DNA of 64,000 nucleotides from a virus (IMGVR_UViG_3300020579_000012:1-64000), one strand, 5' to 3'. Shown: positions 34,142-61,483, numbered from the stretch's first letter. Numbers and translations are program-made. Notes: generated by a model not told the origin, from the sequence alone.

Positions 34142-34396
34142 ATGGGTCGCCCACTTAAAGCAACACTGCCGATCAGTTTGAAGTGTCCTCTCAGCGGTGC
34201 GCTGATCGGTTCGAAAGCCTTCGACGAGCACTTTGCGAACGCCTATTCGGCGAAAAGCGGTCAGTCCGTCTACGTCCTCTGCTATCCACACGGCTTCCAG
34301 GGATTTATCAATAACCCTACTATCGTGGAGCTCGTCAATGCCGAAGCGGAAAAAGCTCGAGTCCGATCAGCCTCAGCCACTCCTCGACCCCACTGA
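34142..34396 (+). CDS. small hypothetical protein
   Basis: ORF track, 84 aa. The 3' end overlaps the next gene by 59 nt. Confidence 0.3.
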   Translation: MGRPLKATLPISLKCPLSGALIGSKAFDEHFANAYSAKSGQSVYVLCYPHGFQGFINNPTIVELVNAEAEKARVRSASATPRPH

Positions 34397-36395
34397 GGAC
34401 GCCTCCGTCGAGACGCAGACATTGCCGGAGCCAGACAACGGCCATCCCGAACAGATCGAGACGGTCGAGCCCGTTGAGCCGCCAGCGAAGGTTAAGTACT
34501 CGGCGGAAGGATCGCCACGTGCTGTTGCCGCCGCGGCCCGGAAGATTGCGAACGTCCAAGTAGCTCCGCTACCAATTCCATCCGATGATGTCGAACCGCC
34601 GGATGAGACCGATAACCTGCTTGCCGACGGTCACAATATGGTGATCGTTCAGCGTCAATTTCCGAAGTCCGTCGACATGGCGGACGGCTCGAAGCGTCGT
34701 TGCGCCGTCAAGCTTCCGGACCGCTATCAGTGCCCGACGACGCGCGAGGAGATCGAGAATGATGTCTTCGATCGGCATGGTGGGAAGAAGTACAAGTGTA
34801 CGATCCACCCGGCAACGACAAACGGTGAGTCGACGATTCTTGGCTTCTTTACGATCGAACATCCGGATCCGGAGGTCGAGCCGTACTTCGACGATGCACC
34901 TACCGCCGGGCAACAGGACCCTCGGGATACACGGACGATGGTTCATACAAGCGGTGGCGATCCGACCATGCACGAGACCGATGGACTCGCTAAGCTTCGT
35001 GCCGATGCTGAGCGACGTCTAGACCGCGCTCGTGTCCGAAAGGAGATGAAGGAGCTCGAGGCTGAGGCGAAGCGGCTCGAGGCTGAGATCGACGGGGACG
35101 GGAAACCGTCCGCTGCTTTACAGCCTACCGTAGAGTCCGACGAAGTGAAGAAGCTTCGTGCGGAACTCGCCGAGAAGGATCGCCTGCTTGCTAAAAAAGA
35201 AGTCAATGATCGTTTCGATAAGATTGAGAACGTCTTAGGAACAATCATGACGACGCTCGCGGCTCCAAAGCCCGTCGAGAAGTCCGGAGACAGCGAGTTA
35301 ATGAAGTTCATCACGAAGAAGATGGAAACAGACTCGACGCAGATCACGGCGCTTATGACTGCGCTCACGGCGAAGGCTCCGGCGCCGGTCCACTCCTCCG
35401 GAGACGACCTCGACAAGTTTCTGAGTCGGGCCGAGAAGTTGAAGGCGATTACCAGCAGCACTGATAGCAAAGGAGGTCGACTTTCGGAGATCGAGAATCG
35501 TTTGATAGACGTTGCCTGGGAGCGACTGCAGGGCGGCGATGGGGGCGACGAGACCGAGGACGTCGCAAAACTTGCCGTCAAGGAGTTCGCGCCGATCTTG
35601 AAGACCTTCGTCGAGCAGAAGATGAAGCAGGAGAGCGGTGCGAGCGGCGGAGCGCCGATCCCTCAGGAACGTCTCCAGCAGATCTACGCCGAGGCAGCTC
35701 AAGCCGCCGCAAAGAAAGTCACGGACGACCTTGCAGTCCAGGGTATTCAGCTTGCCCAGGGTGTCGACGGCCGATTGATTGCTATGACGGCGGTGAAGTC
35801 AGGACCGACAAAGTCGGTTGTTCCGCCACGACAGCACGCAGGTACAAAGGTCGTCGCCGAGCAGCGGACATCGTCAGGAGTCGTCAAGCAAGTTTCGATC
35901 AAACCGACAGACCTGACGAGCAAGACACAGCCGGAACCGCAGCCATCGGCGGAGCCGTCTAAGGAAGGAGGAGACGTGAAACAGGGAGAATTCCCGTTGC
36001 TCGGCGAGAACGGGGCGACTCTTAAGATTCCATTCCCGATCAGCCCCGGCGAGATGAAATATGACAGGAAGCGTGCCGTCGACTTCGTCCTAGCTGGAAT
36101 CCGATCGGAGATCCGGCAGCAGTTCCCGCAGAAGGCCGAGAACAATCAGCAGGTAGAGAGTTATGTTGCTTCAGACGCGATGGCCTACCTCGACGATGAG
36201 CTTCTCGATAGTCTTGAGGCGATCGACAACGGACCGCAGCTCGAGGCGCTTCTAATGCAGTCTGGCGGAGAAGCTTCGCAGATCAACGAGATCAAGAAGG
36301 CTGGTGAGGACGAGGTCGTTGCGAGCTTCTTGAGGCGTCTCATCAAGACGATTCAGACCGAGTGGATTAAAGAAAAGGCGAAGAACACGAAATAA
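34338..36395 (+). CDS. large acidic coiled-coil protein (scaffold or assembly candidate)
   Basis: ATG at 34338 (MPKRKKLESDQ...) with charged heptad stretches, e.g. KEMKELEAEAKRLEAEI. Confidence 0.65.
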   Translation: MPKRKKLESDQPQPLLDPTEDASVETQTLPEPDNGHPEQIETVEPVEPPAKVKYSAEGSPRAVAAAARKIANVQVAPLPIPSDDVEPPDETDNLLADGHNMVIVQRQFPKSVDMADGSKRRCAVKLPDRYQCPTTREEIENDVFDRHGGKKYKCTIHPATTNGESTILGFFTIEHPDPEVEPYFDDAPTAGQQDPRDTRTMVHTSGGDPTMHETDGLAKLRADAERRLDRARVRKEMKELEAEAKRLEAEIDGDGKPSAALQPTVESDEVKKLRAELAEKDRLLAKKEVNDRFDKIENVLGTIMTTLAAPKPVEKSGDSELMKFITKKMETDSTQITALMTALTAKAPAPVHSSGDDLDKFLSRAEKLKAITSSTDSKGGRLSEIENRLIDVAWERLQGGDGGDETEDVAKLAVKEFAPILKTFVEQKMKQESGASGGAPIPQERLQQIYAEAAQAAAKKVTDDLAVQGIQLAQGVDGRLIAMTAVKSGPTKSVVPPRQHAGTKVVAEQRTSSGVVKQVSIKPTDLTSKTQPEPQPSAEPSKEGGDVKQGEFPLLGENGATLKIPFPISPGEMKYDRKRAVDFVLAGIRSEIRQQFPQKAENNQQVESYVASDAMAYLDDELLDSLEAIDNGPQLEALLMQSGGEASQINEIKKAGEDEVVASFLRRLIKTIQTEWIKEKAKNTK

Positions 36396-36415
36396 CAATA
36401 AGGAGAGAGAATTCG

Positions 36416-36730
36416 ATGGCGCATCTCGAGAATATTCCAAGTCAGACTGTAATTCTTGACCAGATCGAGGACCTCTTTCGGCAGTCACTTGCCTTCAGTG
36501 GTCGGATCATCGGCGAGTTCTCGAAGTCTCATGGTTTTAGTGAATCTGAAACCAAGGACCTCATACTCGCAGCCGGTCCGCTTATCGCAACGGACTATTT
36601 GAAGCAGGTAACGGGTGTCGCACAGATCATCGAACGGGCAAACCAGAGTCAGATCGATGATATGGTGGACTCCATGGAGAAGATCCTCGTCGATATCCGC
36701 AAGAGGAACAAGCTGACAGACACGGCCTGA
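36416..36730 (+). CDS. hypothetical protein
   Basis: ORF track, 104 aa. Confidence 0.6.
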   Translation: MAHLENIPSQTVILDQIEDLFRQSLAFSGRIIGEFSKSHGFSESETKDLILAAGPLIATDYLKQVTGVAQIIERANQSQIDDMVDSMEKILVDIRKRNKLTDTA

Positions 36731-36759
36731 ACTGACCGTGTACACGGAGAATTTTCGAG

Positions 36760-37725: not shown

Positions 37726-39378
37726 ATGAGCAACACTGTCGAGAATCTCGATCGTGGCGTGTCAGGCACGTCGGCGACGCTCGACAAGATGCACCAGCTC
37801 GTCGCTCAGGGAAAACTCGACCCGACGTTTCAAAAGATTGCGACTTGGATCCGCGCATCCGTCTCACAGGATCGTCGTGGCAAGACCAAGGATACGGCCG
37901 ACGCGATCTTCGATTGGGTGAAGACGAGCGGGATCTTTCAGTCAGATCCATTTCAGATCGAGAAGATTGAAAGTCCGATCGAAGCGATGCGTCCGATCAT
38001 CCAGGCGCGTCAGGCAGGCACATATACGGGACCCGGTCTCTTTGTCGGTGACTGCGACACGTTTGCGATCATAACTGCGACACTTGGCGGCATTCTAGGT
38101 TTCCAGTACGCCTTCGAGACCGCGAAGGTCGACGCCTCTCGTCCGGACGAGTTTTCGCACGTCTGGACGGCACTACTTGTCGACAACGACTGGTACCCGC
38201 TCGACTCCTCGACTCCTGGCGCCTACCCAGGCTGGCGCCCTCCTGTCGCGCCGAATCTGCTGGCGCGTTGGCCGGAGCAACCGATCGAGAACTTCGTCAA
38301 GGGGTCCGTCATGAGCGCATTCAACCGCGGACTCGGCGATAACCAGACCTCACCGACTGCTGGAATTGACACAGCGTATCCGCAGGACTACATCGCCTAC
38401 GGTGTTCCGAAAGATTTTGGCGCTGGCCCTGGCGTGATTCCGCAAGCGAACTTCGATGATCTTCAACTTCTCCCGCCGCATGAGACGCAGATTCCGGACG
38501 CCGACATGCAGCCGGACATGCATCTGCTTAAGGCTGCGCCGCTACTAAACCCATCCGAACGGATCGAGTCGATCTCTGGATTCCCGACAAACGACCACGG
38601 AAACCCGTACTTCCAGAGCAAACCCGGCAACCCACGCTACAAGGTAGAAAACCAGTTTTACCCGCCCGGCTCGCGCTGGAACGGGCAGATGGGTCACGAC
38701 ATCGTCCGGTACGTTAAGACCGGGTCGTACGTGAAGGTCAAGAGTGCCGAGTCCCCAGAGAGACAAGTGAGGGCGAATATGGCTCAACCGATGATGGTTC
38801 GCAGGCGTATCATCATGTCGAACGGACGACAGATTCCGTTCGGTGCGATGGAGGGCCTCGGTCAGACTGATCCTGGTCTTGTCACGTCACTTGATCCGTC
38901 CGTCTCAGACCCGACAGCCACACCACCGGACACGTCGGGGATGGTTACGTCGCTTGGGCCGACTCCGGCTCCAGCTCCGACTCCAACTCCGGCTCCAGCA
39001 CCATCTTCGGCCTCCATCATGTCGACCGCCGTCACGTCGAATCAGCTTGCACCGACGCCGACTCCAGCCGCCTCATCGAGCCCGCAAGCCGCTGCCGCAG
39101 CATCCGCTGGAGGATCTGTCTGGTCGTCGATCTCATCTGCCTTCCAGGCTGCTGGAACGATCGCCCCGGCCGCGATGCAGTCATCGTTGATGCAGTCCGT
39201 TATCGCAGCGACGAACAAGCTTGCCGGGAAAACCGTTCTCGCACCCGGCGTCGTTCCATGGTACCTGAACCCGATCACGCTCTTCACGCTCGCCCTGATT
39301 GGTGGCGGCGGCTACTACATTCTGCACAAGAACCGTCCTGGGGGCTCCGGAACTCGCCGTCGCCGTCGGTACGCCTAA
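37726..39378 (+). CDS. transglutaminase-like cysteine-protease-fold protein with PAST-rich linker and C-terminal membrane anchor
   Basis: GDCDTFA (Cys), FSHVW (His), PLDSS (Asp). C-terminus LFTLALIGGGGYYILHKNRPGGSGTRRRRRYA. Confidence 0.6.
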   Translation: MSNTVENLDRGVSGTSATLDKMHQLVAQGKLDPTFQKIATWIRASVSQDRRGKTKDTADAIFDWVKTSGIFQSDPFQIEKIESPIEAMRPIIQARQAGTYTGPGLFVGDCDTFAIITATLGGILGFQYAFETAKVDASRPDEFSHVWTALLVDNDWYPLDSSTPGAYPGWRPPVAPNLLARWPEQPIENFVKGSVMSAFNRGLGDNQTSPTAGIDTAYPQDYIAYGVPKDFGAGPGVIPQANFDDLQLLPPHETQIPDADMQPDMHLLKAAPLLNPSERIESISGFPTNDHGNPYFQSKPGNPRYKVENQFYPPGSRWNGQMGHDIVRYVKTGSYVKVKSAESPERQVRANMAQPMMVRRRIIMSNGRQIPFGAMEGLGQTDPGLVTSLDPSVSDPTATPPDTSGMVTSLGPTPAPAPTPTPAPAPSSASIMSTAVTSNQLAPTPTPAASSSPQAAAAASAGGSVWSSISSAFQAAGTIAPAAMQSSLMQSVIAATNKLAGKTVLAPGVVPWYLNPITLFTLALIGGGGYYILHKNRPGGSGTRRRRRYA

Positions 39379-39382: not shown

Positions 39383-39652
39383 ATGTCTCAGATCATCTAC
39401 GTCCGGAGACCCGGCCTCGGCGACGTGACTTCATCGATCACGGACGCTGCGACCGCGTCTATGGCTCCCGTGATCGAGCAGATGCTCGTGAATGACGTTC
39501 TACCGATGGTTGTTGTCGGTATGGTTGCGGGAGCCGCCGTCGCCGCGTTCATCGGCACATGGTTTTCGCACAAGGCGATGCGTTCTGCAGGAGTTATCAG
39601 GAAGAATCCTGTCGCGCGGACGTACGTCTCGCTCCGACGGAGGCGTGCGTGA
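39383..39652 (+). CDS. small membrane protein with basic tail
   Basis: LPMVVVGMVAGAAVAAFIGTW ... IRKNPVARTYVSLRRRRA. Confidence 0.6.
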   Translation: MSQIIYVRRPGLGDVTSSITDAATASMAPVIEQMLVNDVLPMVVVGMVAGAAVAAFIGTWFSHKAMRSAGVIRKNPVARTYVSLRRRRA

Positions 39653-39675
39653 GCTGGCTGAATTTAAAATCAAGG

Positions 39676-42642
39676 ATGATGTCAGAGCTTCGGCGCTGGG
39701 CTCGAGGTATTACAGAGACCAGCGGCCCGGAGTTCAACTTCGACGCCGAGTCGGCAATCTGGTGGTTCGCAAACGACTACCACAGCGGCGGCGGCAGCGA
39801 GCTCTATCAGATCCTCTCGATGTCGAAACTCCGTCCCGGTCCGTCGCACCGTTCTGTCTCAGACGAGGGTGAGATCCCGGCGATGATGTACGAGGCTCTC
39901 GAGCAGAAGTTCATCCCGAAGGGTAAAGCTAAACGGAATCCTTCCCGTGTCCGAGCGAACAGTAACTACGCTCATCAGGACGCGAAGCTTTTCCAGATCG
40001 TCTACATCGGTCGATCGAAGTACCGAGCGATCGGACGGCTGCCAGACGGAATCATGCTCTGGAAGGGCTCAGGTCCGACGATTTATATGTTGATCGAGAA
40101 TGCCCAGGGCGAGTGGGGAACCGGTCGCTTCGACAACAAACTCTTCGCGCAGCCGGTCGCCCAGCAGTTCTCGCGTCTGCCGACAGAGACCAAGCGGTAC
40201 ATCATCACCCAGCAGAAACGCGGTTCGGCGATCACTCCGGGCGGCATCTGGAAGAACTCCGGAGGCTCCGTGCGGAAGAATATCTACACCTTTAACAATC
40301 CCGGCAACGCCCAGAAGATTCTCGCCGAGAACTTCATGCGCGGCGCGAACTCCGGCGTTGCATCGTCGATGTACATCCACGGGAACAGGATCTACTCGTA
40401 CGGCCCGCACTTCCCGATCGCGCAGCGGAACGACGACGGGACGATCCTGATCCGGCACCCGAGCAAGAAGGCGCCGTCAAAGACGACTGCGGGGCACATC
40501 TCCGCCGTCGTGAATGCTGCGCGTCAGGTCTACTCGCCCGACTCGATTCTGTATGACACGGCCGGGGAGCTTTCGGCTGAGGCGAAAGGTCCGGCGGCGT
40601 ACTCGAACCCAGGTGTCAGAAAAAACATCTACACGTTCAACAATCCGCGTGACTCCTCTGTCGAGTCCGCCGCTCGCGCGGTCGGTCTGTTCGTTGGAGT
40701 TTGGTCGCCTGGAGACGGACAGACACGATATCGCTTCTTCTCGAAGACAACGCGCGGTAGTCGGTATGCCGATTACCACGAGGGCGATGGCATCTACACG
40801 GCGCTCGGACGGAAGGACGCGCTGGCGTTCATTGCGGCATACGGGAAGGGCCGTGGAGCCAGGAGAAATCCAAAGACGTCGGTATATGTTATCGAAGGCT
40901 TCACACACCGTGGTCGACGCGGCAAAAGTCAACGGCGTGCGGAATTCAGGACGCCGTCTCTCACAGAGGCACGTGCGAGAGCGGAGCAGATATTCCAGGA
41001 GACCGGCGTTGTTGTTGCGATCACTCAGAGGAACCCACTGACACGCTCGGAGGCCGGATACCTGCTTCGGCATGCGAAGGCAGACGTCACCGAGGCAGCC
41101 GTCGCTCGCCGACATGGCCTGACCTACGAGCAGAAGTACGCCGTCGGACACGCCCGCGGGATCGGCTTCGCGGTCCAGGAGACAGGACCGAAGGCAGCGC
41201 GGAAGGCCTGGGTCGATCTCCATACGAGGTTGGATCGGGTCACTCGGAATCCGTGCTTGAATAATCCAACCTGCGCGAATCCGAGGCATCCGCACGGTCC
41301 TGTCGAGAACACAGCCTACGGACAGCGTCGTTCGTATGCCGACTTCGTCGCGCGGAAGCGTGCGGAGTACGGTGACAAGTTCGACGACTCGGATCTCGCG
41401 CCTCAGTTCATCCAGTACTACGAATCCGGCGCGCGGATCGAGGTCGAGTTCGTCTCGTCGACAACCGGTAAGCCGTACGAGACGAAGCGCGGTCGCGTCG
41501 GCGTGACGACCGGCTGGAAGCCTGTCTTTCTGCTCATGCTGACAACGAGAAGTATGGGTTCTCCGTACACGCTCGGGAAAAATGATCGTGTAGTCCGGTT
41601 CGTCCGGTCGAACCCTCTTACCGTCTCCGAAGACAGAGAGATCGAGCACGTCGCAAGACGTGAGAGGATCATAGGCGAGCAGATTCAGAGTCCCGGCAGC
41701 CGCGGGTATGCACTCGGTCACTCGGACGGAATGAACCACGTCCGGAGGAAGTACGGCCCTATTCGTCGCAACCCTCTCCTCCAGACGATCGGCCTGATGG
41801 CAAACCCGCCGGTCTCTGACCAGTGGAACAGGATGACGTCGCGCCAGCGACTCCATGCGCTCGAGTTCGTCGGCTACCCGACGGATTTCGCCAGTTCGAT
41901 GGCCCGGCGCCTCTGGATGACGCTTCCTGGGACTGCTCGCGAGCGCCTCGAGTCCGCTCGGCTCGACACGAGCTCGCGCGGGACGACCCGTCGGCGCGTC
42001 GCTGTGCCGGTCGGGGCGAATCCTCTGACACGGACAGAATCAGGTCAGATCCTTCGGGATGCGAGATTTGACGCCCGTTACGGATCGACATTTCAGGGTG
42101 GACACACTCGCTCATCCCGTGCCGGGATGGCCTGGGCGAAGGCGAAAGTCGTCCGTCAGTACGGACCGAAGAGCGCTCGTCGCGCTGCGAGTCGGATTGC
42201 CGATAAAGCTCGGACTGTGGCGCGGACGGCGATGTCGAACCCCGGTGTCCGCTTCCCGAAGCCCGGCACGAAGTTGACCGTTGCACAAGCCTTCGAGCTC
42301 GCGCGCCGGATCGGCGATCGGGCCCTGATCGAGCAGTGCCGGAAGGCGCTGAAGCTCCAGAAGGCCGCCAACAAGGACGTCAAGTGTGTCATCTGGAAGA
42401 CCTTTCCGATGGGCTCGAAAGGACAAATCGACTCGGTGATCGCCCTGACGCACTACGGCGACTCGCCGGAGACGATGTACCGGCCGCCGCCAGGATCGAA
42501 GAAGGGCAACCACATGTACCGTCACAACTGGGGCGAGAAGGGCGGCAAGCAGACCGTCCCGCTGCTCGCCTCGGCGGACGGGAAGATGCTGCTGATGCCG
42601 CTTGAAGGTAAGAAGGTCGCTTCCGATTGGCTGAGGCATTGA
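39676..42642 (+). CDS. 988-aa basic multi-repeat protein (internal or core virion protein candidate)
   Basis: ATG ATG at 39676. VRKNIYTFNNP occurs twice, NPLT(R/V)(S/T)E modules three times, and there are many [RKS]NP motifs. Confidence 0.7.
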   Translation: MMSELRRWARGITETSGPEFNFDAESAIWWFANDYHSGGGSELYQILSMSKLRPGPSHRSVSDEGEIPAMMYEALEQKFIPKGKAKRNPSRVRANSNYAHQDAKLFQIVYIGRSKYRAIGRLPDGIMLWKGSGPTIYMLIENAQGEWGTGRFDNKLFAQPVAQQFSRLPTETKRYIITQQKRGSAITPGGIWKNSGGSVRKNIYTFNNPGNAQKILAENFMRGANSGVASSMYIHGNRIYSYGPHFPIAQRNDDGTILIRHPSKKAPSKTTAGHISAVVNAARQVYSPDSILYDTAGELSAEAKGPAAYSNPGVRKNIYTFNNPRDSSVESAARAVGLFVGVWSPGDGQTRYRFFSKTTRGSRYADYHEGDGIYTALGRKDALAFIAAYGKGRGARRNPKTSVYVIEGFTHRGRRGKSQRRAEFRTPSLTEARARAEQIFQETGVVVAITQRNPLTRSEAGYLLRHAKADVTEAAVARRHGLTYEQKYAVGHARGIGFAVQETGPKAARKAWVDLHTRLDRVTRNPCLNNPTCANPRHPHGPVENTAYGQRRSYADFVARKRAEYGDKFDDSDLAPQFIQYYESGARIEVEFVSSTTGKPYETKRGRVGVTTGWKPVFLLMLTTRSMGSPYTLGKNDRVVRFVRSNPLTVSEDREIEHVARRERIIGEQIQSPGSRGYALGHSDGMNHVRRKYGPIRRNPLLQTIGLMANPPVSDQWNRMTSRQRLHALEFVGYPTDFASSMARRLWMTLPGTARERLESARLDTSSRGTTRRRVAVPVGANPLTRTESGQILRDARFDARYGSTFQGGHTRSSRAGMAWAKAKVVRQYGPKSARRAASRIADKARTVARTAMSNPGVRFPKPGTKLTVAQAFELARRIGDRALIEQCRKALKLQKAANKDVKCVIWKTFPMGSKGQIDSVIALTHYGDSPETMYRPPPGSKKGNHMYRHNWGEKGGKQTVPLLASADGKMLLMPLEGKKVASDWLRH

Positions 42643-42652
42643 GGGTGAGATC

Positions 42653-43762: not shown

Positions 43763-43781
43763 ATCAGAGCGATCGAAGGGA

Positions 43782-43846: not shown

Positions 43847-43936
43847 CCGGGCCAGAACGCCAGCCCGTCCCGCGGTATTTTGTGGACGAAAGTCCCGGCC
43901 GATGCGGAAGTGGCGTGAGATCGAAAGGTGGAAGCC

Positions 43937-51614: not shown

Positions 51615-51630
51615 CGAAACGGAGAATCCG

Positions 51631-54107: not shown

Positions 54108-54109
54108 CC

Positions 54110-54712
54110 ATGGACCCAGACGTCACCTACGCCCGGGCCCTCGCGACCGCCTTTGCGGCGGACATAGACAATCCGTCAATCGCCGGGGTGATCCAACGTG
54201 GTGGCCTTACGCAGGACCAGTTTACGTCGATTGTTTATCGGGACATTCAGCGGGGCCTTACCGGAGCACCTGGACCAGCTCTTTTTCCGTCTGTTCGGGC
54301 TTTTGCACGTCAGGTTGTTGGTATTACAGCGATAAAGCAGGCGAGGAGCTACGGACTCTCGCAGGCCTCTTCTGACATCGGCGGGGCCGCCGGTTTAGTC
54401 GGCGCTATTGCTGGAGCTGTTGGTGCGATTTGGAGTACGAAGATCAACACCGACTCCCAGAAGAATCTTGCAAAGATCCAGGCAAACGAGGCGCAGATCA
54501 CTCAGAACTCCCAGACACTTGCTGCGCAGTCTGCATTGATCCAGAATGCGACAGCGAACGGCGTACTCCTCTCTCCGGCGGGAGGTGTGACTCCTGTGAC
54601 CGCGATAGGTCCGTCGGGGACTCTGACCGCCGTTAGTGGTCTTCCGGTTCTGGCGATCGGAACGGCGCTCGCAGCGATGGTGTTCGGTGGCTACTTCTTC
54701 GCAAAAGGATGA
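54110..54712 (+). CDS. protein with C-terminal membrane anchor
   Basis: C-terminus LPVLAIGTALAAMVFGGYFFAKG. Confidence 0.65.
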   Translation: MDPDVTYARALATAFAADIDNPSIAGVIQRGGLTQDQFTSIVYRDIQRGLTGAPGPALFPSVRAFARQVVGITAIKQARSYGLSQASSDIGGAAGLVGAIAGAVGAIWSTKINTDSQKNLAKIQANEAQITQNSQTLAAQSALIQNATANGVLLSPAGGVTPVTAIGPSGTLTAVSGLPVLAIGTALAAMVFGGYFFAKG

Positions 54713-54716
54713 TTCT

Positions 54717-55574
54717 ATGAGAAACCTGCAGCACGGCGTTAGAGTCCGCGTCGTCCAGACGCCGTTGGTTATGTACGTCAACGAGGCGACCTGGATCCCC
54801 AGCGGCATGCATGGCTACGGCGACGAGGGCTGGCGGAGCGGCATGTCCGCCTACCCGGTCGTCGATGACGACTCCGCCGCGATCGAGCCGCTCGTCTCGA
54901 AGCTCATGGTGAATGGGTTACCGGAGGCACAGGCAAGGGCAATCGTTCAGGCCGCCGTAGGGCGTGTCCGGTCGGTTGGAGGCGGTATGGGCGCCTCGTT
55001 GATGGTTGAGAAGGCTACCGCTCTCGACGCGGTCTTCCAGGGTCTCTTAGTCAGGGGTATCCCTGCCGATCGAGCCCGTATTCTCGTCAACCGGGCTGCC
55101 ATGCGTCGTGCCGGTCTGTCCGGTATGGGCCAGAGCGCGACCGTCGACGCTGCAGTCCTGCAGAAGGCGAGCGATACGCAGACCCAGCACCAAGCTTTAA
55201 TTGCCCAGTACGCCGCGGCGACAGACCCCACTTCGCAACTGGATATCCGGAACCAGATTGATGCTCTGTATTCCGACTGGACGACCTACGCGGTCGGCGT
55301 CGAGAATGGTCAGCCTCCGTACCAGTGGAATCTGGCCGACCCGACCGCGGCAATCCTTTCGTCGATCCGAAATGACATCGCGAATACGCTGTCCCTGATC
55401 GATGCCGGGAAGGCTCAGCTCGCGCTCCAAAAGAACATCGTGACCTCCTGGTCGCAGTCTTCGCCGAATATGACCATGCCGACGATATCACCAGGCGATG
55501 TCCCCTGGTACGTCTGGGCGGGTGGCGGTGTGGTTGGCCTGACAGCACTCAGCAAGTTATTCGGGAAGAAGTGA
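54717..55574 (+). CDS. protein with C-terminal membrane anchor
   Basis: ATG at 54717; C-terminus VPWYVWAGGGVVGLTALSKLFGKK. Confidence 0.65.
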   Translation: MRNLQHGVRVRVVQTPLVMYVNEATWIPSGMHGYGDEGWRSGMSAYPVVDDDSAAIEPLVSKLMVNGLPEAQARAIVQAAVGRVRSVGGGMGASLMVEKATALDAVFQGLLVRGIPADRARILVNRAAMRRAGLSGMGQSATVDAAVLQKASDTQTQHQALIAQYAAATDPTSQLDIRNQIDALYSDWTTYAVGVENGQPPYQWNLADPTAAILSSIRNDIANTLSLIDAGKAQLALQKNIVTSWSQSSPNMTMPTISPGDVPWYVWAGGGVVGLTALSKLFGKK

Positions 55575-55651: not shown

Positions 55652-56980
55652 ATGCCTCAGAAACCGCAGCTCATCGACATGATCCGGACGGTCCCGGAAG
55701 TCGCCGTGCGACTTTGGGCGGGCGGAGTCCCGCGCCCGTCCGACGATGGCGTCCGGATCGAGTTCGAGGGCCACATGCCGGTATTTCATGCGGACATCTA
55801 CCAGCAGGCCGACAAAGTCGCTCGGATCCTGGCGATCCGCTGGGGCAGTCGCAAGCTCCGGTCGATGACGGACCTTTTGGATCTCCGGCACGCCGCTGAG
55901 GATGTTTTCATCGAAAATCTCTTCCATCGAGAGGACACACCGAAAGTCCTCTTTGTTCCGGCTGGTGAGACCGCCTCCGGCTTCTACCGTGCGATGATCC
56001 CGGCAGATCTGATGAATGAGGGCGGCCGGATCATCTCCCATTGGACGAGTCGCCCGGATGTTGCGAAGGCACTTCGCTACGACGTCCTTTGGATCCAGCT
56101 CATCACGGCGCCGATTCTGATCGAGATCGCCCGTCAGGCGCAGGCGAGCGGCGTCCGGATCGTCTACGACATCGACGACAACCTGTCTGCGATTCCAGAC
56201 GAGAATCAAGCAAAGAACGTCTACGGGACTCCGGAAAAGCAGGCGGAGATCCGGGCGATGATCGATTTGGCGGATCTCGTCACAGTCTCGACGGCACCGC
56301 TCGGGCGGGTCATTGCCGCTCGGCACCCTGGCAAACGGGTCGTCGTCCTTCCGAATATGGTGACGGCGAACGTTGCTCCGCGTCGGCATACACCGAATCC
56401 TGGCTTTGTTCGGATACTCTGGGCCGGAACGCCGACACATAAGCGGGACCTCGCGATCGTTGCACCCGCACTCCGGGAGCTGCTCCGGGAGCGGAACGGA
56501 AATGTTCGCTTTACGCTCTTCGGCGAGCGCGTCCCGGAGGCCCTGGCGGACTGCCAACAGTGGATCGACCTTAAGAAGCCGGTCGACTTTCAGGACTACC
56601 ACGACGAGCTTGCCGAGCTCGCCGCGGACTTTGGGATCGTCCCGCTCGAGGCGAATGCCTTTAACGAATCGAAGTCCGGCTTGAAGGGTCTCGAGTACGC
56701 CTCCGCGGGCTACCCGATGCTCTGTTCTCCGGCCGCTGAGTACCCGGACATGGTCCGGGACGGATTCCCGTCCGCACTCGTTGCCGATGGCGACTGGCTT
56801 CCCGCGCTCCGGTACATGGTCGATCTGACGGCCAAGGAACGCGATATCATGGGGAAGGCTTGCATTGACTGGGCCACCCGGAACCGCTGCATGGGGACGA
56901 ACCATGCAGACCAGTGGGCCGACGTTGTCCATGATCTTCTCGGGAAGCCGACGAAGGCGGAACTGAAGCTGGTGAGTTGA
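55652..56980 (+). CDS. GT-B type glycosyltransferase
   Basis: RILWAGTPTH...FNESKSGLKGLEYASAGYPMLCS signature. Confidence 0.7.
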   Translation: MPQKPQLIDMIRTVPEVAVRLWAGGVPRPSDDGVRIEFEGHMPVFHADIYQQADKVARILAIRWGSRKLRSMTDLLDLRHAAEDVFIENLFHREDTPKVLFVPAGETASGFYRAMIPADLMNEGGRIISHWTSRPDVAKALRYDVLWIQLITAPILIEIARQAQASGVRIVYDIDDNLSAIPDENQAKNVYGTPEKQAEIRAMIDLADLVTVSTAPLGRVIAARHPGKRVVVLPNMVTANVAPRRHTPNPGFVRILWAGTPTHKRDLAIVAPALRELLRERNGNVRFTLFGERVPEALADCQQWIDLKKPVDFQDYHDELAELAADFGIVPLEANAFNESKSGLKGLEYASAGYPMLCSPAAEYPDMVRDGFPSALVADGDWLPALRYMVDLTAKERDIMGKACIDWATRNRCMGTNHADQWADVVHDLLGKPTKAELKLVS

Positions 56981-57246
56981 TGGCGCGACTTGATGCAGCG
57001 ATCGATGTGGCGACGGAGTACGCCTACCACCTCTACAAGGTGGACGGCGTTCCACAGGCTCAGGCCATCACGATCGGTGCGGCGGCGGTCGTCCGGGCAG
57101 CTCGTGCGAATCCGTTAAAGTTCGTCACGCCGAGAGCACAGCCACAGCCGGAGTCCGCACTTGGTTGGTCCGGACAGGCACTCTCACTGGTTGGTTCATC
57201 TCTCTCGGTAATCGGTTTGATTAAAACACTTTTCGGTGGAGGATAG
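56977..57246 (+). CDS. small protein with C-terminal membrane anchor
   Basis: C-terminus GWSGQALSLVGSSLSVIGLIKTLFGGG. Confidence 0.55.
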   Translation: MMARLDAAIDVATEYAYHLYKVDGVPQAQAITIGAAAVVRAARANPLKFVTPRAQPQPESALGWSGQALSLVGSSLSVIGLIKTLFGGG

Positions 57247-57250
57247 AAAG

Positions 57251-57661
57251 ATGTCGAAGGGAATCCGACGCTCCGGTCCAGGAAAATGTAACACGATCCT
57301 AGACTCGGTCATCTACCAGATGATCGGAGAGGGCATGGGCGACGAGTCTTGCGGGGATGTTTCCGAGGTTGGATTCGCTGCCGAGAAGATCTCTCTCGGT
57401 AGGGATGCTATCAAGGAGGCTGAGAGAATTGCCGCGGAAGACGACGGTCTGACCGACGAGGAAGTCGATATGATAAAAGACTCCGTCGGGGCGATCATGG
57501 TCGAGAACGACCAAGGATTCGTCACTGTCGACTACTACGAAAATGAGAAGGAATTCGAGAAGGACTGGGAGGAAATCCAGGACGACGCTTCCCCTGAAGA
57601 CGAGGAAGAAGAGGAAGAGGAATCTGAAGAGGAAGACGCCGAGACCGAGGAGGCTGAATAG
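57251..57661 (+). CDS. highly acidic protein with poly-Glu tail
   Basis: ATG at 57251; ends ...DDASPEDEEEEEEESEEEDAETEEAE. Confidence 0.65.
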   Translation: MSKGIRRSGPGKCNTILDSVIYQMIGEGMGDESCGDVSEVGFAAEKISLGRDAIKEAERIAAEDDGLTDEEVDMIKDSVGAIMVENDQGFVTVDYYENEKEFEKDWEEIQDDASPEDEEEEEEESEEEDAETEEAE

Positions 57662-57663
57662 CC

Positions 57664-58113
57664 ATGTCGCTGACAACCGAACAGTACAGGACCTTGGCAG
57701 ACGTCCAGCGCAACCTCGTCCGACGTGGGGTGAGTCCGGTAGCCGCAGGGCAGGCGATCCTCCGTGCCGTCGACCGGGTGGCGCCGGGTGGCATGGGCTC
57801 GTGTGGTCCGGACTGCTGCTGCTGCCGTGGCAGTGGCGTCGGACAGACTACTCTTGCGCCCCTCTCGACGACGACCGGCGGGCTGGCGCCAACGACGGCC
57901 AGTCCCGTAGCCGGAGCCCCTCCGATCATCTCGACGATCGACGCGGCAGGGAATAATCCGTCCGTTGCGGCAATGCGGGACCTCGTCGGGAAGTGGTCTT
58001 GGGTGATTCCGGTTGGCGGTCTATTGATGTCCGCGAAGTCGAAGTTCACGGACTGGCGGGCCTCGAAGACGGATCCGGCGTATGCTGCTTCGAAGAGTCT
58101 GAGGAGCCGGTGA
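57664..58113 (+). CDS. hypothetical protein (CCCC cluster, PAST-rich middle)
   Basis: ORF track, 149 aa. Confidence 0.6.
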   Translation: MSLTTEQYRTLADVQRNLVRRGVSPVAAGQAILRAVDRVAPGGMGSCGPDCCCCRGSGVGQTTLAPLSTTTGGLAPTTASPVAGAPPIISTIDAAGNNPSVAAMRDLVGKWSWVIPVGGLLMSAKSKFTDWRASKTDPAYAASKSLRSR

Positions 58114-58340
58114 AGCTGCTGAAAGCCTTCAGGTTTCTTCATAAGAAGAAACCGTGTTTTCGATGCGGCGGGAACGCGACAGTCGGGTATATGTCGATCG
58201 ACTACTGCGTGATCTGCCGTGAAGTCGTGATGAGAATGATGCCGATCGTCGGGTTTGGCGGGATGTTCGGGTTTCCGGGGGCGACCGGATACTTGGAGTT
58301 CCCGAATTTGGAGAAGATCCAGGAGAAGAAGGAGAACTGA
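58110..58340 (+). CDS. small zinc-ribbon protein
   Basis: GTG at 58110 (GTGA overlap); CFRCG ... CVIC. Confidence 0.45.
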   Translation: MKLLKAFRFLHKKKPCFRCGGNATVGYMSIDYCVICREVVMRMMPIVGFGGMFGFPGATGYLEFPNLEKIQEKKEN

Positions 58341-58341
58341 C

Positions 58342-58656
58342 ATGGGAGACGCGCCGTACATCATCATCAAGAACCGTCCCGGGTCCGGGGCCTTTAAGCG
58401 GTCGATCAGAACCCCTCGTTTCTGGCAGCACAACGAGACCGGGAACGTGGTCGAGATCGTCCGAGTTCAGGAGGTCGACGGGAGCTGGCTCAGGTACATC
58501 TTCATCGATCCGACTGTTCCCGGCGTGCAGCTTTCCATGCCGTTCAAGACCCGGGAGAATCCGTACCAGCCACCCGGCCGATCGACGCCGCTGATGGAGC
58601 CTGGTTTTGAGGACCAGTACCACGTTTACAAGGACCAGCAGAGCACGCGGGTCTAG
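58342..58656 (+). CDS. hypothetical protein
   Basis: ATG at 58342 (MGDAPYIIIKNRPGSG...). Confidence 0.55.
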   Translation: MGDAPYIIIKNRPGSGAFKRSIRTPRFWQHNETGNVVEIVRVQEVDGSWLRYIFIDPTVPGVQLSMPFKTRENPYQPPGRSTPLMEPGFEDQYHVYKDQQSTRV

Positions 58657-58658
58657 TT

Positions 58659-59168
58659 ATGGATGAACTCAATAAACCACAAAAGGTCCGGCCGATTGTA
58701 TTTCCGGACATCCTGTCTCCCGAGGAGCTCGACCGGGAGATCCGTCGCGTCTGGAAGATCTGTATCGCCGCGTCTGTCTCGGTTCCGCTCCTGGCGTGCG
58801 TCGTCGTGGCACTCCTGTTCTTCGGCGTCACGGACCTAAAGACCGTCGGACTGATCGCCTACCCGATAACGGCGATCGTTCTGATGACGTTCGGGCTCGC
58901 CTTCGTGATCCCGGCGACACTGACCAGCATCCGCCGCGTTTCGGCTACGGTCCGGATGGCCTATACAGGGCTACAGACGAACCAGCAGACGACGGAGTCG
59001 ATAAAGGCCTTTCTCGAGGAGGCTCGGCCGATCGTCGATGTCATGAAGAATCAGATCCAGGACGGTTTCCTTGAGAAAATCGAGGGACACTTGAAGACGA
59101 TCGCCGAGCGCGTCAAGCGCGACACGACGCCGTTGCCGACAGGTCGCCGACCCTCGATCGAGGCCTAA
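58659..59168 (+). CDS. two-TM membrane protein
   Basis: ICIAASVSVPLLACVVVALLFFGV and LIAYPITAIVLMTFGLAFVI. Confidence 0.65.
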   Translation: MDELNKPQKVRPIVFPDILSPEELDREIRRVWKICIAASVSVPLLACVVVALLFFGVTDLKTVGLIAYPITAIVLMTFGLAFVIPATLTSIRRVSATVRMAYTGLQTNQQTTESIKAFLEEARPIVDVMKNQIQDGFLEKIEGHLKTIAERVKRDTTPLPTGRRPSIEA

Positions 59169-59177
59169 CGGAAAAAT

Positions 59178-59612
59178 ATGGCAGGCGGCGGAGGCAGCGG
59201 GACGATTTACCTGAGAGGCTCTACCTATCAATGCTGCGGCAGCATATCCCAAAATAAAGACGTGGTGACGATCCGGAAGGGCCAGCCAGTTGCCGTTCAC
59301 TCGAGCGGAGTCGGAGTCGTCCTGGCCGGTGCCGCTCTCAACGGGATGTACGCTGTTGGACTAGCGAAGGAAGACATTGCGGTAGGCGCGAGCGGACCGA
59401 TCGCAGACTTCGGCGACTTCCAGATGTCCGACTGGACACCCGTCGTCGGTTCGCCGTCCCTGGCGGCGAAGGCAACGTACTTCCTAAGTGACGTGGTAGG
59501 CCAGCTCTCGACAGTTTCTCCGTCATCCCCTGGAGACGTCAGTCAGATTGTTCTGCGTGAGATAGCTCCGGACACTGCGTCGCTACGAATAGAATCTCCG
59601 ATTTTGATCTGA
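59178..59612 (+). CDS. structural protein, paralogue of 59621..60097
   Basis: MAGGGGSG N-terminus; C-terminus ...LRIESPILI. Confidence 0.6.
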   Translation: MAGGGGSGTIYLRGSTYQCCGSISQNKDVVTIRKGQPVAVHSSGVGVVLAGAALNGMYAVGLAKEDIAVGASGPIADFGDFQMSDWTPVVGSPSLAAKATYFLSDVVGQLSTVSPSSPGDVSQIVLREIAPDTASLRIESPILI

Positions 59613-59620
59613 GGTGATCC

Positions 59621-60097
59621 TTGGCACTCAGAAAACCGCTCGTCTTCAACGGCGGCATCCAGCAGCTCCAGAGTGGAGACACCCTGGATGCCGCACGGTC
59701 CGATTCATCCGGTCTGATCCAGACGAACGACAACGTCGGCGCAATGATCGCCGGACAGGTCGTATACAACGACGCGAACGACGGCGTCAAGAGCGCGAAG
59801 GCTGACGCCAGCGCGACGAAGGACGTCGTCGGTCTGATGCTCGACACTCCGGCGGCGGCCGGAACCGGCTTCGTCGCTATGAGCGGACCGGTCACGTTGA
59901 CGACCGCGCAATGGGATGCGGTCTTCGGGACGTCCGGAGGACTGACAAAGGGAACTCGCTACTACCTGTCGGCAACATCCGCCGGTCAGGGTCAGGCTGG
60001 TGCCCCAACCACCGTGGGACAGTATGTCGTCGAACTCGGTATCGCCATTTCGACGACCGAGCTGATGCTTGCGATCAGGAGCCCGATCCTCCTTTGA
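59621..60097 (+). CDS. structural protein, paralogue of 59178..59612
   Basis: C-terminus ...LAIRSPILL; shared G.pV...VG(L)...G.....G.v layout. Confidence 0.6.
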   Translation: MALRKPLVFNGGIQQLQSGDTLDAARSDSSGLIQTNDNVGAMIAGQVVYNDANDGVKSAKADASATKDVVGLMLDTPAAAGTGFVAMSGPVTLTTAQWDAVFGTSGGLTKGTRYYLSATSAGQGQAGAPTTVGQYVVELGIAISTTELMLAIRSPILL

Positions 60098-60315
60098 GCG
60101 ACAAGAAGCCTCTTGTCCTGGGGACCGATCCGTCGAGCGGTGCGGTTCAGATGCAGCAGATTCAGCCGTGCGATCAGGTTAACCCGGCCTCGCTCCCGTT
60201 CGATCGGGAGACGAATTTGCGTAGGCTCTTTCGTGTCCTGATTCGAGATCTGATGAGCATTGGATTCCCTGTGTCTCAGGAATTGATCGACGAAGCCTCT
60301 AAGCAAGGATACTGA
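60094..60315 (+). CDS. small hypothetical protein
   Basis: TTG start in a TTGA overlap. LSDKKPLVLG... echoes MALRKPLVFNG of the preceding gene. Confidence 0.4.
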   Translation: MSDKKPLVLGTDPSSGAVQMQQIQPCDQVNPASLPFDRETNLRRLFRVLIRDLMSIGFPVSQELIDEASKQGY

Positions 60316-60316
60316 C

Positions 60317-61081
60317 ATGGCAAACTTCACAGCGATCGTACGAGGGATAGCGCAGCGCGTCCTCGCGATCACATCGCCGACCCCGGACGGAACGGAGACA
60401 CCGAACGGAGTCCGTACTGGGAGATTCAACGAACTATTCTCGCTGAATCTCTGGGCAAAACAGCACGGCCTCGCGGACGAGGAGTCGTCCTTTGTGATGT
60501 CCGGAACGCTCGGCACCGGAGTCGCAACGATCGCTGCGCTCACGGGGCTTGTCGATACATCTCCTTTTATCATTGCGAAGAATATTGCTGATCCGTCAAC
60601 CGGGATCCGGTCCTATCTCGACCTCTTGAAGCTCATCTGCACGGTGGCCGGGACAGCAGGGACGGCGCTTCGATACGGGGTCAAAGTCGGACCGAGTCGA
60701 CAAGACCCGACCGGAATGGACGCTGCATTCAACCCGACTCTGGCGGCACCGACCGGCGTTCCACAAAACGTCCAGGCGTCCAGCCAGAGGCAGTCGATCC
60801 TGCGCGTCTATGCCGGGGCGCTCGTTGCACCGGCCGCTCAGGGCGGTACGCGCCAGCTTGGGGGAGGTCTCCTGAAGAGCGCAATCCCCGTCGCCAACGA
60901 CCAATACATCATCAACTTCGGCGGAATCGATCCGGCCGCGCCTGCAACCCAGGTCGATAGGAACGACGCGCATCCTTCGGTGGTAATCCCTCCCGGCTAC
61001 TCCGCGTTCATACACATTTGGCTCCCCTCGCAGTCTGCGGCCTCGAGCTACGAGATTCAACTCCATCATCACGAAAGATAG
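60317..61081 (+). CDS. beta-rich structural protein
   Basis: ORF track, 254 aa. Confidence 0.6.
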   Translation: MANFTAIVRGIAQRVLAITSPTPDGTETPNGVRTGRFNELFSLNLWAKQHGLADEESSFVMSGTLGTGVATIAALTGLVDTSPFIIAKNIADPSTGIRSYLDLLKLICTVAGTAGTALRYGVKVGPSRQDPTGMDAAFNPTLAAPTGVPQNVQASSQRQSILRVYAGALVAPAAQGGTRQLGGGLLKSAIPVANDQYIINFGGIDPAAPATQVDRNDAHPSVVIPPGYSAFIHIWLPSQSAASSYEIQLHHHER

Positions 61082-61084
61082 ATC

Positions 61085-61483
61085 GTGACCAGAGTCGAAG
61101 TCCTCTTCGATCTCATCCGGACACAGGCGTCGCTCCGGTTCCCCTGGATCGCCCAGGTCAAGGTGAAGTTCTGTCCGATGGCCGACCGGGATCACGGGAT
61201 GAAATGGCGCCAGTTCGCCCATACAAATCATCGCGTGTACACGGTCTGTTTCGCGAAGGCGGCCGAGATCGAACTCTTCGACGAGGAGGTCCTCGGGATG
61301 TCGGCGCACGAGCTGGGGCATATCGTCGGGAAGCGTCTTCGATACCCGGAGCACTCGCGGCCGACGACGACGAAGAGGACCCCCAAGGCCGTCCAGGACG
61401 AGGCCGACAGGATCGCCCAGGAGGTCCTTGGGTTCGACGGCCTTCACTACAACCACCGGACGCTCCAGGAGCTTAGAGGATAG
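61085..61483 (+). CDS. small HExxH zinc metalloprotease-like protein
   Basis: MSAHELGHIVG motif; GTG start. Confidence 0.5.
   Translation: MTRVEVLFDLIRTQASLRFPWIAQVKVKFCPMADRDHGMKWRQFAHTNHRVYTVCFAKAAEIELFDEEVLGMSAHELGHIVGKRLRYPEHSRPTTTKRTPKAVQDEADRIAQEVLGFDGLHYNHRTLQELRG

Follow-up and report, generated by a model that had tools for sequence, protein, structure and literature searches.

The 64,000-nucleotide (nt) stretch of viral DNA analysed here (IMGVR_UViG_3300020579_000012:1-64000, the whole of which is called the window) covers 93% of a circular genome that probably belongs to a tailless icosahedral virus with a jelly-roll capsid, one that would be lined by a membrane, packaged by an ATPase of the HerA/FtsK superfamily and placed in a new, deep lineage. 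The plus-strand block 34338-61483 is likely to be the late (morphogenesis) operon of this circular prokaryotic double-stranded DNA (dsDNA) virus. Two adjacent genes within it encode a protein of 220 amino acids (aa) modelled as a single jelly roll and one of 313 aa modelled as two, and no gene of a tailed phage was found there. Its novelty lies in joining a capsid principle already known to a far larger genome and to new accessory machinery, without a link to named families at the level of sequence. On the best reading the lineage is a deep branch distantly related to the Salisaeta phage SSIP-1, its sole detectable cultured relative. The features that carry this argument are the following.

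44732-45673, plus strand: candidate major capsid protein of 313 aa with two tandem jelly rolls (AlphaFold2 model, Foldseek, hhalign)
43937-44599, plus strand: 220-aa single jelly-roll protein, predicted capsid protein (AlphaFold2 model, Foldseek)
45738-46400, plus strand: 220-aa protein, third of the conserved capsid block (position, conservation)
43780-43850, plus strand: two adjacent G+C-rich hairpins with 11-bp and 17-bp (base-pair) stems (folding)
37726-39378, plus strand: 550-aa transglutaminase/papain-like protein with Cys, His and Asp (homology to SSIP-1 gp34)
4077-5483, minus strand: ATPase of the HerA/FtsK superfamily, 468 aa, containing a coiled coil and, at the C-terminus, a helix-turn-helix (HTH) (PDB, Pfam, NCBIfam, hhalign)

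The AlphaFold2 model of the 313-aa protein, built on an alignment of 65 sequences, has a predicted local distance difference test (pLDDT) score of 87.7 and a predicted template modelling (pTM) score of 0.85. It consists of two colinear eight-strand halves with a linker helix between them and a short helix equivalently placed in each half. Residues 38-159 align with residues 191-309 in hhalign over 109 columns at P 7.7e-5, strand for strand and in order, so the halves are homologous. To our knowledge, detectable sequence likeness between both jelly rolls is unusual among double-jelly-roll capsid proteins. The model thus has two jelly-roll barrels in one polypeptide, as do capsid proteins of the Bamfordvirae type, the PRD1-adenovirus lineage, with modest template modelling (TM) scores to solved structures. 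Its PDB matches in Foldseek, at probabilities of 0.99-1.0, include PHM, DUF2961 (4kq7), alphaFFase1 (7v1v) and 8ic8, which we take to be the known cellular double-jelly-roll set, together with PR772 virion chain A, the phiCjT23 capsid and a STIV virion chain. The PR772 chain, matched at a probability of 0.99, has 390 residues in the virion model and is read as capsid protein P3. TM-scores of these matches span 0.35-0.47, the cellular double-jelly-roll proteins being highest. In BFVD the best global match is I1ZBI0, a viral protein of 256 aa (TM 0.57/0.68, E 2e-7), followed by giant-virus proteins, including those of Hyperionvirus, Terrestrivirus and Pithovirus. Pfam and PDB searches gave no enzyme family or catalytic signal of the cellular double-jelly-roll type. 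The gene is preceded by a strong Shine-Dalgarno site (GAAGGAG), and its product has 101 homologue clusters (42-88% identity, 300-328 aa) whose longest contigs are mostly 64-75 kb and at most 75 kb.

The product of 43937-44599 is the most conserved late protein (78 homologue clusters, 47-96% identity). Its model (pLDDT 80, pTM 0.74) is a single jelly roll with the SPV1 virion model 6oj0_A as best PDB match (E 7e-4, probability 1.0) and picornavirus, nodavirus, circovirus and bromovirus capsid proteins as further matches. A first-pass annotation made from the sequence had singled out these two neighbours as beta-rich, which the confident jelly-roll models of both bear out. It had also placed the window's strongest hairpins on either side of the pair, and this holds upstream only: 43801-43850, ahead of the first capsid gene, has a more stable fold than any other 50-nt segment in the window (-44.6 kcal/mol) and 43763-43900 folds at -85.4 kcal/mol (z = -7.3), whereas a weaker 9-bp stem lies between both genes and nothing comparable follows the second. 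The hairpins at 43780-43850 would be candidates for a terminator or an mRNA-stabilising element. A consensus terminator scan showed no enrichment, and it misses these big hairpins because they have no T-run. The ranking comes from a sliding-window fold of the whole window, an inverted-repeat tool having given short palindromes only, and its second place is taken by 19561-19610, between minus-strand genes (-41.4 kcal/mol, 11+7-bp G+C stem).

The gene at 45738-46400 always lies directly downstream of the 313-aa gene; its product (27-89% identity, no family match) is a candidate vertex or minor capsid protein. The three genes belong to a syntenic seven-gene core that is kept down to 42% capsid-protein identity and runs from a 685-aa protein through the transglutaminase-like protein, a large basic protein, an Arg-rich 369-aa protein, the single jelly roll and the double jelly roll to the 45738-46400 product.

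Based on these models, the 313-aa protein would most likely form trimeric, pseudo-hexagonal capsomers like those of PRD1 P3 and PM2 P2, its two barrels standing upright on the shell next to each other. The 220-aa single jelly roll may serve as penton at the vertices or may be one of two major capsid proteins. In the reading preferred here it would occupy the vertices, possibly together with the 45738-46400 product. A shell of the P23-77/sphaerolipovirus type, in which the 220-aa single-barrel protein and the 313-aa protein, as a stacked two-barrel protein, jointly form the pseudo-hexamers and another protein the pentons, is possible, if somewhat unlikely. The small-then-large order of the adjacent genes is like that of P23-77 VP16 and VP17, but hhalign against VP16 and VP17 gave nothing, and VP16/VP17 and the haloarchaeal capsids fall outside the top 50 Foldseek matches, inside which PHM, DUF2961 and the PR772 chain are found. 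The strong conservation of the 220-aa protein would be expected of a major shell component and the third conserved protein (45738-46400) could serve as penton; yet both halves of the 313-aa protein have the same topology and are homologous, and the ATPase gene does not precede the capsid genes as it does in sphaerolipoviruses. SSIP-1, for its part, has been assigned two capsid types, and the nearest SSIP-1 matches are the adjacent gp46 and gp47 (the latter unverified), which would fit the two-protein shell.

Public contigs with identical capsid genes measure 68,367-69,060 bp. An ENA contig leads from window position 64000 through 4,821 more bases to window positions 1-45, and one Logan assembly of the same genome begins at about window position 37,282 and is therefore circularly permuted relative to the other assemblies. 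The genome is a circle of about 68.8 kb (permuted assemblies 68.4-68.8 kb), in line with the earlier statement that the element exceeds 64 kb. Most assemblies break within a tandem array, which one permuted assembly crosses.

1-154, no strand, on across the circle junction (1-310 of public contig L004): 15-bp tandem array, unit CCGCGCAGGTCGGCA (Tandem Repeats Finder, TRF)

According to TRF on the window and L004, this intergenic array continues for about 265 nt beyond the junction and has about 28 copies in total; it would be a candidate origin (iterons) or packaging signal. The 4.8 kb beyond the window contain small genes, an HNH-like ORF (open reading frame) and a 375-aa zinc-ribbon protein, with no ORF longer than 404 aa. 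The HNH-endonuclease-like motif was seen by eye at L004 2002-2502, in same-strand overlap with called genes. The window itself is made up of a minus-strand block (about 800-33826), the plus-strand block 34338-61483 and a short minus-strand block (61736-64000), and GC skew tracks the coding strand across it. A scan of the window for tRNAs and Rfam families found none. In the gap between the divergent blocks, 34039-34130, a minus-strand sigma-70-like site reads TTGACA, 16 nt, TATACT and TG (11 of 12 positions), and a weaker one lies on the plus strand; the count of such sites around this gap is no higher than in shuffled sequence.

The late module was said at first to hold about 40 co-directional genes without any hallmark of tailed phages. 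Mechanical ORF finding gives 34-35 ORFs for it and gene calling on the identical public contigs gives 37 genes, all on the plus strand, and the absence of such hallmarks stands after scans with Pfam, of every late ORF, and PHROGs, of the late ORFs apart from an 84-aa and a 60-aa ORF, a 76-aa gene at about 58.1 kb (L004 10527-10757) and the alternative-frame ORF 59911-60315. In these late ORFs the scans found neither a terminase, portal or HK97 family nor one for a tape measure, sheath, tube or baseplate, and no terminase, portal or HK97 family in the rest of the window (early ORFs of about 180 aa and more) or in the three largest called genes of the 4.8-kb segment, several small ORFs of which lay outside the scan. 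Terminases or portals elsewhere, which the first-pass annotation had proposed to look for, did not appear in the ORFs scanned. The only named families in the late ORFs are glycosyltransferases, for 55652-56980, besides a few PHROGs of unknown function, and no candidate virion or membrane protein has an informative match in either database.

The ATPase encoded at 4077-5483 is the only candidate for a genome-packaging motor. Against HerA in PDB it scores 5.6e-6 as a single sequence and 2.8e-23 with a 40-sequence profile (STIV B204, 2e-5). Among the 40 family members 21 match DUF87 and 15 HerA_C in Pfam, and the NCBIfam matches are HerA models. Aligned with hhalign over the whole ATPase core, the profile reaches 96.4% for the P23-77 ATPase, 95.0% for PRD1 P9 and 87.1% for PM2 P9. 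Its early description as FtsK/HerA is therefore correct, and homology to HerA and, at 95-96% in hhalign, to PRD1 P9 and P23-77 makes it comparable to packaging ATPases of the Bamfordvirae type. A Walker-A pattern search found plausible sites in this ATPase and the D5 helicase only, the pattern missing a third ATPase, the XPD-type helicase at 32033-33826. One 70.9-kb contig carries both a 72%-identical ATPase and an 89%-identical capsid gene; pattern scans for co-occurrence in further family members returned that single shared contig, the other relatives lying on short or unrelated contigs. The ATPase family is unannotated, with many members of about 590 aa, some of them with a C-terminal HTH. 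Relatives occur at loci L016, L018 and L021-L023, in L016 next to an N6/N4 DNA methyltransferase on an unrelated virus-like contig, and one further relative is on a contig labelled farmland.

The same ATPase matches phrog_2666, 'terminase large subunit', at E 3.6e-9. It was considered as a terminase and rejected: it is HerA-type by PDB, Pfam and NCBIfam and has neither a nuclease domain nor a Pfam terminase match, so the label reflects a shared P-loop core. Across all ORFs scanned, no Pfam terminase family appeared, and hence no terminase with a nuclease domain as in Caudoviricetes. A very diverged tailed phage of the HK97 lineage whose hallmark genes escape recognition by sequence has, in our estimate, very little probability. 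This phrog_2666 match speaks in its favour, as does the fact that fold predictions cover two late proteins only, for which reason the absence of portal, HK97 capsid and tail proteins is a statement about sequence. The two late proteins that come next in conservation to the single jelly roll, each with a strong ribosome-binding site before its gene, are nevertheless jelly rolls or unmatched, not HK97, and no protein of portal size matches a portal family (for the 685-aa protein, by sequence only).

The link to SSIP-1, a cultured membrane-containing phage with T=49 and a circular 44-kb genome, whose shell is placed in the literature among viruses with two capsid protein types, comes mainly from the 550-aa protein. 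Its Cys-His-Asp domain aligns with the SSIP-1 virion protein gp34 (BLASTP 3e-10, profile 8e-8; Cys, His and Asp aligned), which upholds the membrane-anchored transglutaminase/cysteine-protease fold initially assigned to it. Pfam Transglut_core is matched by gp34 at 9e-7, the window protein itself lying below Pfam detection. In tblastn against all phage records it returned nothing at E <= 1e-3, so the gp34 match is borderline at database scale. Immediately upstream of gp34 is ORF33, just as the 685-aa gene lies upstream of the transglutaminase-like gene, and the 685-aa profile matches ORF33 weakly (E 3.6e-4, high composition bias). Apart from gp34, the weak ORF33 match and the non-significant rankings of gp46 and gp47, searches for homologues of SSIP-1 virion proteins were negative. 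ORF13 of SSIP-1 was tried as a counterpart of the ATPase and ruled out, being an integrase. As for the capsid, I1ZBI0 is probably the SSIP-1 structural protein gp47, since gp47 is the only 256-aa coding sequence of that phage. No sequence homologue of gp47 was found among 5.8 billion proteins and no profile could be made, so the link to gp47 stays at the level of fold.

An internal membrane would be suggested by the tail-anchored proteins together with the homologue of an SSIP-1 virion protein. In at least eight late proteins the C-terminus consists of a single hydrophobic segment and a K/R-rich (Lys/Arg-rich) tail, somewhat more than the minimum of seven counted at first. A jelly-roll capsid without an internal membrane, its anchored proteins residing in the host membrane (for assembly, lysis or superinfection exclusion) or in an outer envelope, is improbable. 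The prokaryotic dsDNA viruses with double or vertical single jelly rolls covered in the literature, SSIP-1 included, all have an internal membrane, and the anchors seen here bear K/R tails, are encoded in the late operon beside the capsid genes and in one case belong to a homologue of an SSIP-1 virion protein. In favour of the membrane-free particle, the membrane is read from sequence features, and among the late proteins Pfam and PHROGs found no lipid-related enzyme or known membrane-scaffolding family.

The motifs GGAG, GAGG or AGGA precede 22 of the 34 late genes (65%, against a background of 14%), and several starts overlap the preceding stop by 4 bp. Signals of this kind indicate that the host is a prokaryote, more likely a bacterium in view of GroES. 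They also bear on a small relative of eukaryotic giant or polinton-like viruses, an origin with hardly any probability. The gene set of D5, FtsK/HerA, double jelly roll and penton is common to Nucleocytoviricota and mriyaviruses, and the Foldseek matches include the Hyperionvirus, Terrestrivirus and Pithovirus proteins. Set against this are the Shine-Dalgarno motifs and operon-style overlaps, a GroES of bacterial type and a tyrosine recombinase, replication genes that match phage families strongly in PHROGs, and the lack of any VLTF3, DNA polymerase or RNA polymerase family in the proteins that the scans covered.

Related contigs number 8 in IMG/VR, and 28 loci were found in JGI metagenomes, all of them on contigs of 72.7 kb or less and hence without a prophage junction. 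The family's longest contigs measure 64-75 kb, never more. Integrated copies were seen neither in the GTDB genome scan nor in the metagenome scan. The former returned one 14-kb contig, entirely viral, that is binned with a metagenome-assembled genome (MAG) of Thermoanaerobaculia (acidobacterial), and another family contig is filed under a Thermoplasmata MAG. Clustered at 90% identity, the capsid protein has more than 100 clusters in JGI, ENA, NCBI and Logan assemblies. Neither the module nor the capsid protein nor the transglutaminase-like protein had a match in megablast and tblastn searches of 50,697 phage records, and no description of the lineage was found in the deposited phage genomes or the literature searched (coverage incomplete).

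It is very improbable that the element is not a virus at all, but a plasmid-like or mobile element whose 313-aa protein is a double-jelly-roll enzyme of the cellular type (glycosidase or monooxygenase-like). Foldseek scores to cellular double-jelly-roll proteins do equal those to viral capsids, but the best structural match of the model is a viral protein, and the two-barrel gene adjoins a virus-type single jelly roll after the strongest hairpin and a strong ribosome-binding site. Several glycosyltransferases and the lack of any integrated or host-linked copy in the scans would suit such an element; families for conjugation, partition or plasmid replication were absent from the proteins scanned. 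The conserved block includes Arg-rich proteins of a DNA-condensing type, the genome size stays tightly within 64-75 kb, as a capsid of fixed volume would lead one to expect, and the homology to an SSIP-1 virion protein and the presence of the contigs in IMG/VR further argue for a virus.

Several observations weigh against the reading of a tailless jelly-roll virus packaged by this ATPase. Sequence profiles of the 313-aa and 220-aa proteins match nothing in PDB beyond noise, and hhalign of both against PRD1 P3/P31/P5, PM2 P2/P1 and P23-77 VP16/VP17 gave nothing. TM-scores to solved viral double-jelly-roll capsids (0.35-0.42) are not above those to cellular double-jelly-roll enzymes. Within SSIP-1, the 220-aa profile has gp46 as its top match and the 313-aa profile has gp47 in second place, neither significantly, and I1ZBI0, an accession that did not resolve, is equated with gp47 by length alone. 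The ATPase gene lies on the opposite strand, at least 27 kb from the capsid genes, and its co-occurrence with the capsid gene was seen in one other genome only. The protein is nearer to cellular and defence HerA than to A32/P9-type ATPases and has no homologue in SSIP-1. Its family is very large (6,180 representatives at E <= 1e-3) and also present in unrelated elements. Finally, capsomer geometry, membrane, protein roles, packaging route, particle shape and host are all deduced from genes.

If the element is nevertheless the tailless, membrane-lined virus proposed here, a lipid vesicle under the shell would bear the many tail-anchored proteins. Their K/R-rich C-terminal tails and the Arg-rich proteins (39649-43762) would face and condense the DNA, and the membrane-anchored transglutaminase-like enzyme would be carried in the virion. 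The variable Gly-tailed proteins (46422-49955) would act as spikes that set the host range. The HerA/FtsK ATPase would pump the DNA through one vertex into a preformed, membrane-lined procapsid, as in PRD1. The remaining late genes are listed below.

34338-36395, plus strand: 685-aa acidic coiled-coil protein, first late gene (sequence, position)
39383-39652, plus strand: 89-aa single-pass membrane protein (hydrophobic segment, residues 30-48)
39649-42642, plus strand: 997-aa basic protein with internal repeats (16% Arg+Lys)
42653-43762, plus strand: 369-aa protein, extremely rich in Arg over its first 150 residues (RRNP repeats) and hydrophobic in the C-terminal half (20% Arg+Lys)
46422-49955, plus strand: variable block of six small proteins (poorly conserved, no family matches)
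50012-55574, plus strand: block rich in membrane proteins (hydrophobic C-terminal segments, tails)
55652-56980, plus strand: GT4-type glycosyltransferase (Pfam Glyco_trans_1_4, 5e-7; phrog_7162, 3e-35)
56980-61483, plus strand: distal late genes (sequence, hydrophobic segments; no informative family match)

The 685-aa protein has no family match, is kept at the head of the module in distant relatives and is a candidate scaffolding or assembly protein. The transglutaminase-like protein continues through a Pro/Ala/Ser-rich linker into a C-terminal membrane anchor and an RRRRR tail and has 41-78% identity across relatives; it may be a virion enzyme, either wall-degrading during entry or a maturation protease. 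The 89-aa membrane protein, kept in closer relatives, has a basic C-terminal tail (RKNP...RRRRA).

The Arg+Lys contents of the 997-aa and 369-aa proteins agree with the arginine-rich, core-like character given to this region from the start. The 997-aa protein matches only the unknown-function PHROGs 8217 and 7247 and keeps its position with a variable length (630-1376 aa in relatives); it is a candidate core or size-determining protein. In one genome with about 99% identity outside this stretch, its counterpart (L002 2368-4737) has 789 aa, and identity falls to 84% in the intervening segment. The 369-aa protein is present in all relatives compared (37-87% identity) and could form a bridge from the DNA to the membrane or shell. 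The motif [RK]-N-P occurs five times in each protein, against 0.37 expected in the 997-aa and 0.13 in the 369-aa protein, an excess reached in none of 2000 shuffles. It recurs in the basic tail of the 89-aa protein, and relatives retain NP dipeptides; it may mark a site of cleavage by a protease or bind DNA in the manner of an AT-hook.

Flanked by conserved genes, the block 46422-49955 is poorly conserved or absent even in close relatives, a hypervariability expected of host-recognition proteins, and its products are candidate spikes or receptor-binding proteins. Four small, weakly conserved late proteins have similar Gly-rich N-termini, at the gene starts 46833 (MASGG...), 47737 (MASGGGPGGGGG...), 48416 (MAKGGGPGGG...) and 59178 (MAGGGGSG...), and these shared termini may be a flexible anchor for interchangeable spike proteins. 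The block 50012-55574, conserved in closer relatives and free of family matches, includes four consecutive tail-anchored proteins of 380, 445, 200 and 285 aa that end in a G-rich helix and a K/R tail; its products are candidate virion-membrane proteins. The tail anchors in 51631-55574, 37726-39378 and 56980-57246 consist of Trp or Val-Pro-Trp-Tyr, a Gly/Ala/Leu-rich helix and GGGK(K/R) or an Arg run, a pattern that resembles a sorting signal more closely than a generic transmembrane helix. The distal genes encode one tail-anchored protein (88 aa), one acidic protein, a membrane protein with two helices, a pair of paralogues, a protein of 254 aa and one of 132 aa with an HExxH motif. The paralogues, at 59178-59612 and 59621-60097, end in SPILI and SPILL. 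The last late gene (61085-61483) gives the 132-aa protein, in which the HExxH zinc-protease motif reads HELGH without a family match and which could be a lysis or processing enzyme.

Besides the ATPase, the minus-strand block contains the replication module and several enzymes.

27830-30241, minus strand: D5-like primase-helicase of the replication module (Pfam DUF5906, D5_N, PriCT_1 and Pox_D5; phrog_864, 3e-88)
12824-13609, minus strand: tyrosine recombinase (Pfam Phage_integrase, 2e-13)
32033-33826, minus-strand block: XPD-like helicase (family scan)

Pfam and PHROGs also identified a SprT-like protein, GroES (Cpn10, 6e-24), several glycosyltransferases and a methyltransferase in this block, so the D5 primase-helicase, GroES and glycosylation genes named in the first-pass annotation are real. 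Weak D5 homologues adjoin the late module in distant relatives. The tyrosine recombinase may serve integration or dimer resolution. This early block is unusually rich in small Cys-rich proteins with CxxC pairs, zinc-ribbon-like, encoded at 3583-4080, 11460-11864, 12259-12908, 14872-15192, 17789-18133, 26119-26406 and 31084-32036.

Genome size is where the earlier account needs correction. It had supposed relatives of 10-20 kb, but SSIP-1 has 44 kb and is the proper comparison, so the excess is about 1.6-fold and not 3- to 6-fold. Its central proposal, an unusually large, undescribed lineage of tailless jelly-roll viruses, is supported, jelly-roll folds having been predicted for the two candidate capsid proteins and no capsid, portal or terminase of the HK97 kind having emerged from the scans. 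A 2024 source describes the genomes of Preplasmiviricota, tailless double jelly-roll phages included, as comparatively short (<50 kbp). With SSIP-1 as the largest cultured example found, a widespread family of 64-75 kb would raise this ceiling by half, and no larger tailless jelly-roll genome was found reported for prokaryotes. As Pfam and PHROGs give no informative match for the candidate virion and membrane proteins, genomes of the family are likely unclassified or mis-binned, and the family would be invisible to marker-based phage annotation. The Arg-rich core proteins, papain-like enzyme, HerA-HTH motor, GroES and glycosyltransferases could provide a bacterial-scale model of how jelly-roll capsids are scaled up, and the internally similar capsid protein bears on the origin of the double jelly roll.

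A broader proposition is tentative and, taken as a whole, unlikely: that this is a class-level undescribed prokaryotic lineage, with SSIP-1 as its only cultured outlier, which attained 64-75 kb independently of giant viruses. In view of the sequence likeness of its halves, the 313-aa protein would then stem from a fusion of single jelly-roll genes that either is rather young or has evolved slowly, with the single-roll gene retained beside it, and the family would perhaps be a living intermediate between the two-gene (Helvetiavirae) and the fused (Bamfordvirae) solution to building a capsid.

Compared with known systems, the cellular double-jelly-roll proteins give the highest PDB TM-scores (0.35-0.47, probability 1.0), whereas the gene considered here lies within a viral morphogenesis operon. 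Nucleocytoviricota and mriyaviruses share with the element a D5-like primase-helicase, an FtsK/HerA ATPase, double and single jelly-roll capsid proteins, virus-encoded glycosyltransferases and a genome of tens of kb. They differ from it in that the element has prokaryotic translation signals and operon structure, and from their eukaryotic host, VLTF3 and polymerase/replication set only the D5-like helicase is held in common.

The Helvetiavirae (P23-77, IN93, SH1, HHIV-2, HCIV-1) are alike in having adjacent small and large capsid genes, the large one with two beta-barrels, in ATPase homology (hhalign 96%) and in an internal membrane, here a predicted one. The small gene precedes the large one directly (220-aa then 313-aa, as VP16 and VP17). 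However, hhalign probabilities for similarity to VP16/VP17 or VP4/VP7 are below 1% and these proteins are absent from the top 50 Foldseek PDB matches of either model. Nor does the ATPase gene lie just ahead of the capsid genes: in P23-77 no more than two small ORFs come between ATPase and VP16, as opposed to at least 27 kb and a change of strand here. The two barrels of the 313-aa protein are mutually homologous and colinear, unlike those of Helvetiavirae, whose genomes are 17-31 kb.

SSIP-1 resembles the element in its circular dsDNA genome, large for a tailless phage, and in a virion transglutaminase-like protein with a catalytic triad (gp34 versus 37726-39378). The gene order is also similar, with a coiled-coil ORF (ORF33) followed by genes for a transglutaminase-like, a very large, a roughly 210-aa and a roughly 256-aa two-barrel protein. 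The two differ in genome size (44 kb versus 69 kb), in capsid proteins that have no detectable sequence similarity, in the HerA-type ATPase found only here and in origin, SSIP-1 being a halophile isolate and the present family known from metagenomes.

PRD1, PR772 and PM2, of the Tectiviridae and Corticoviridae in the class Tectiliviricetes, finally, have genomes 4.5 to 7 times smaller, capsid proteins without sequence similarity to those described here, and an ATPase half as long; the present ATPase, with its C-terminal HTH, stands closer to HerA proper, and its gene lies away from that of the capsid protein. Replication in the element relies on a D5 primase-helicase, with no protein-primed DNA polymerase among the proteins scanned, and Arg-rich core-type proteins and virus-encoded glycosyltransferases set it further apart. 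Nevertheless, all three phages resemble it in pairing a double-jelly-roll capsid protein with a single jelly-roll protein and in having many small membrane proteins in the late operon, and PM2 also in its circular genome.

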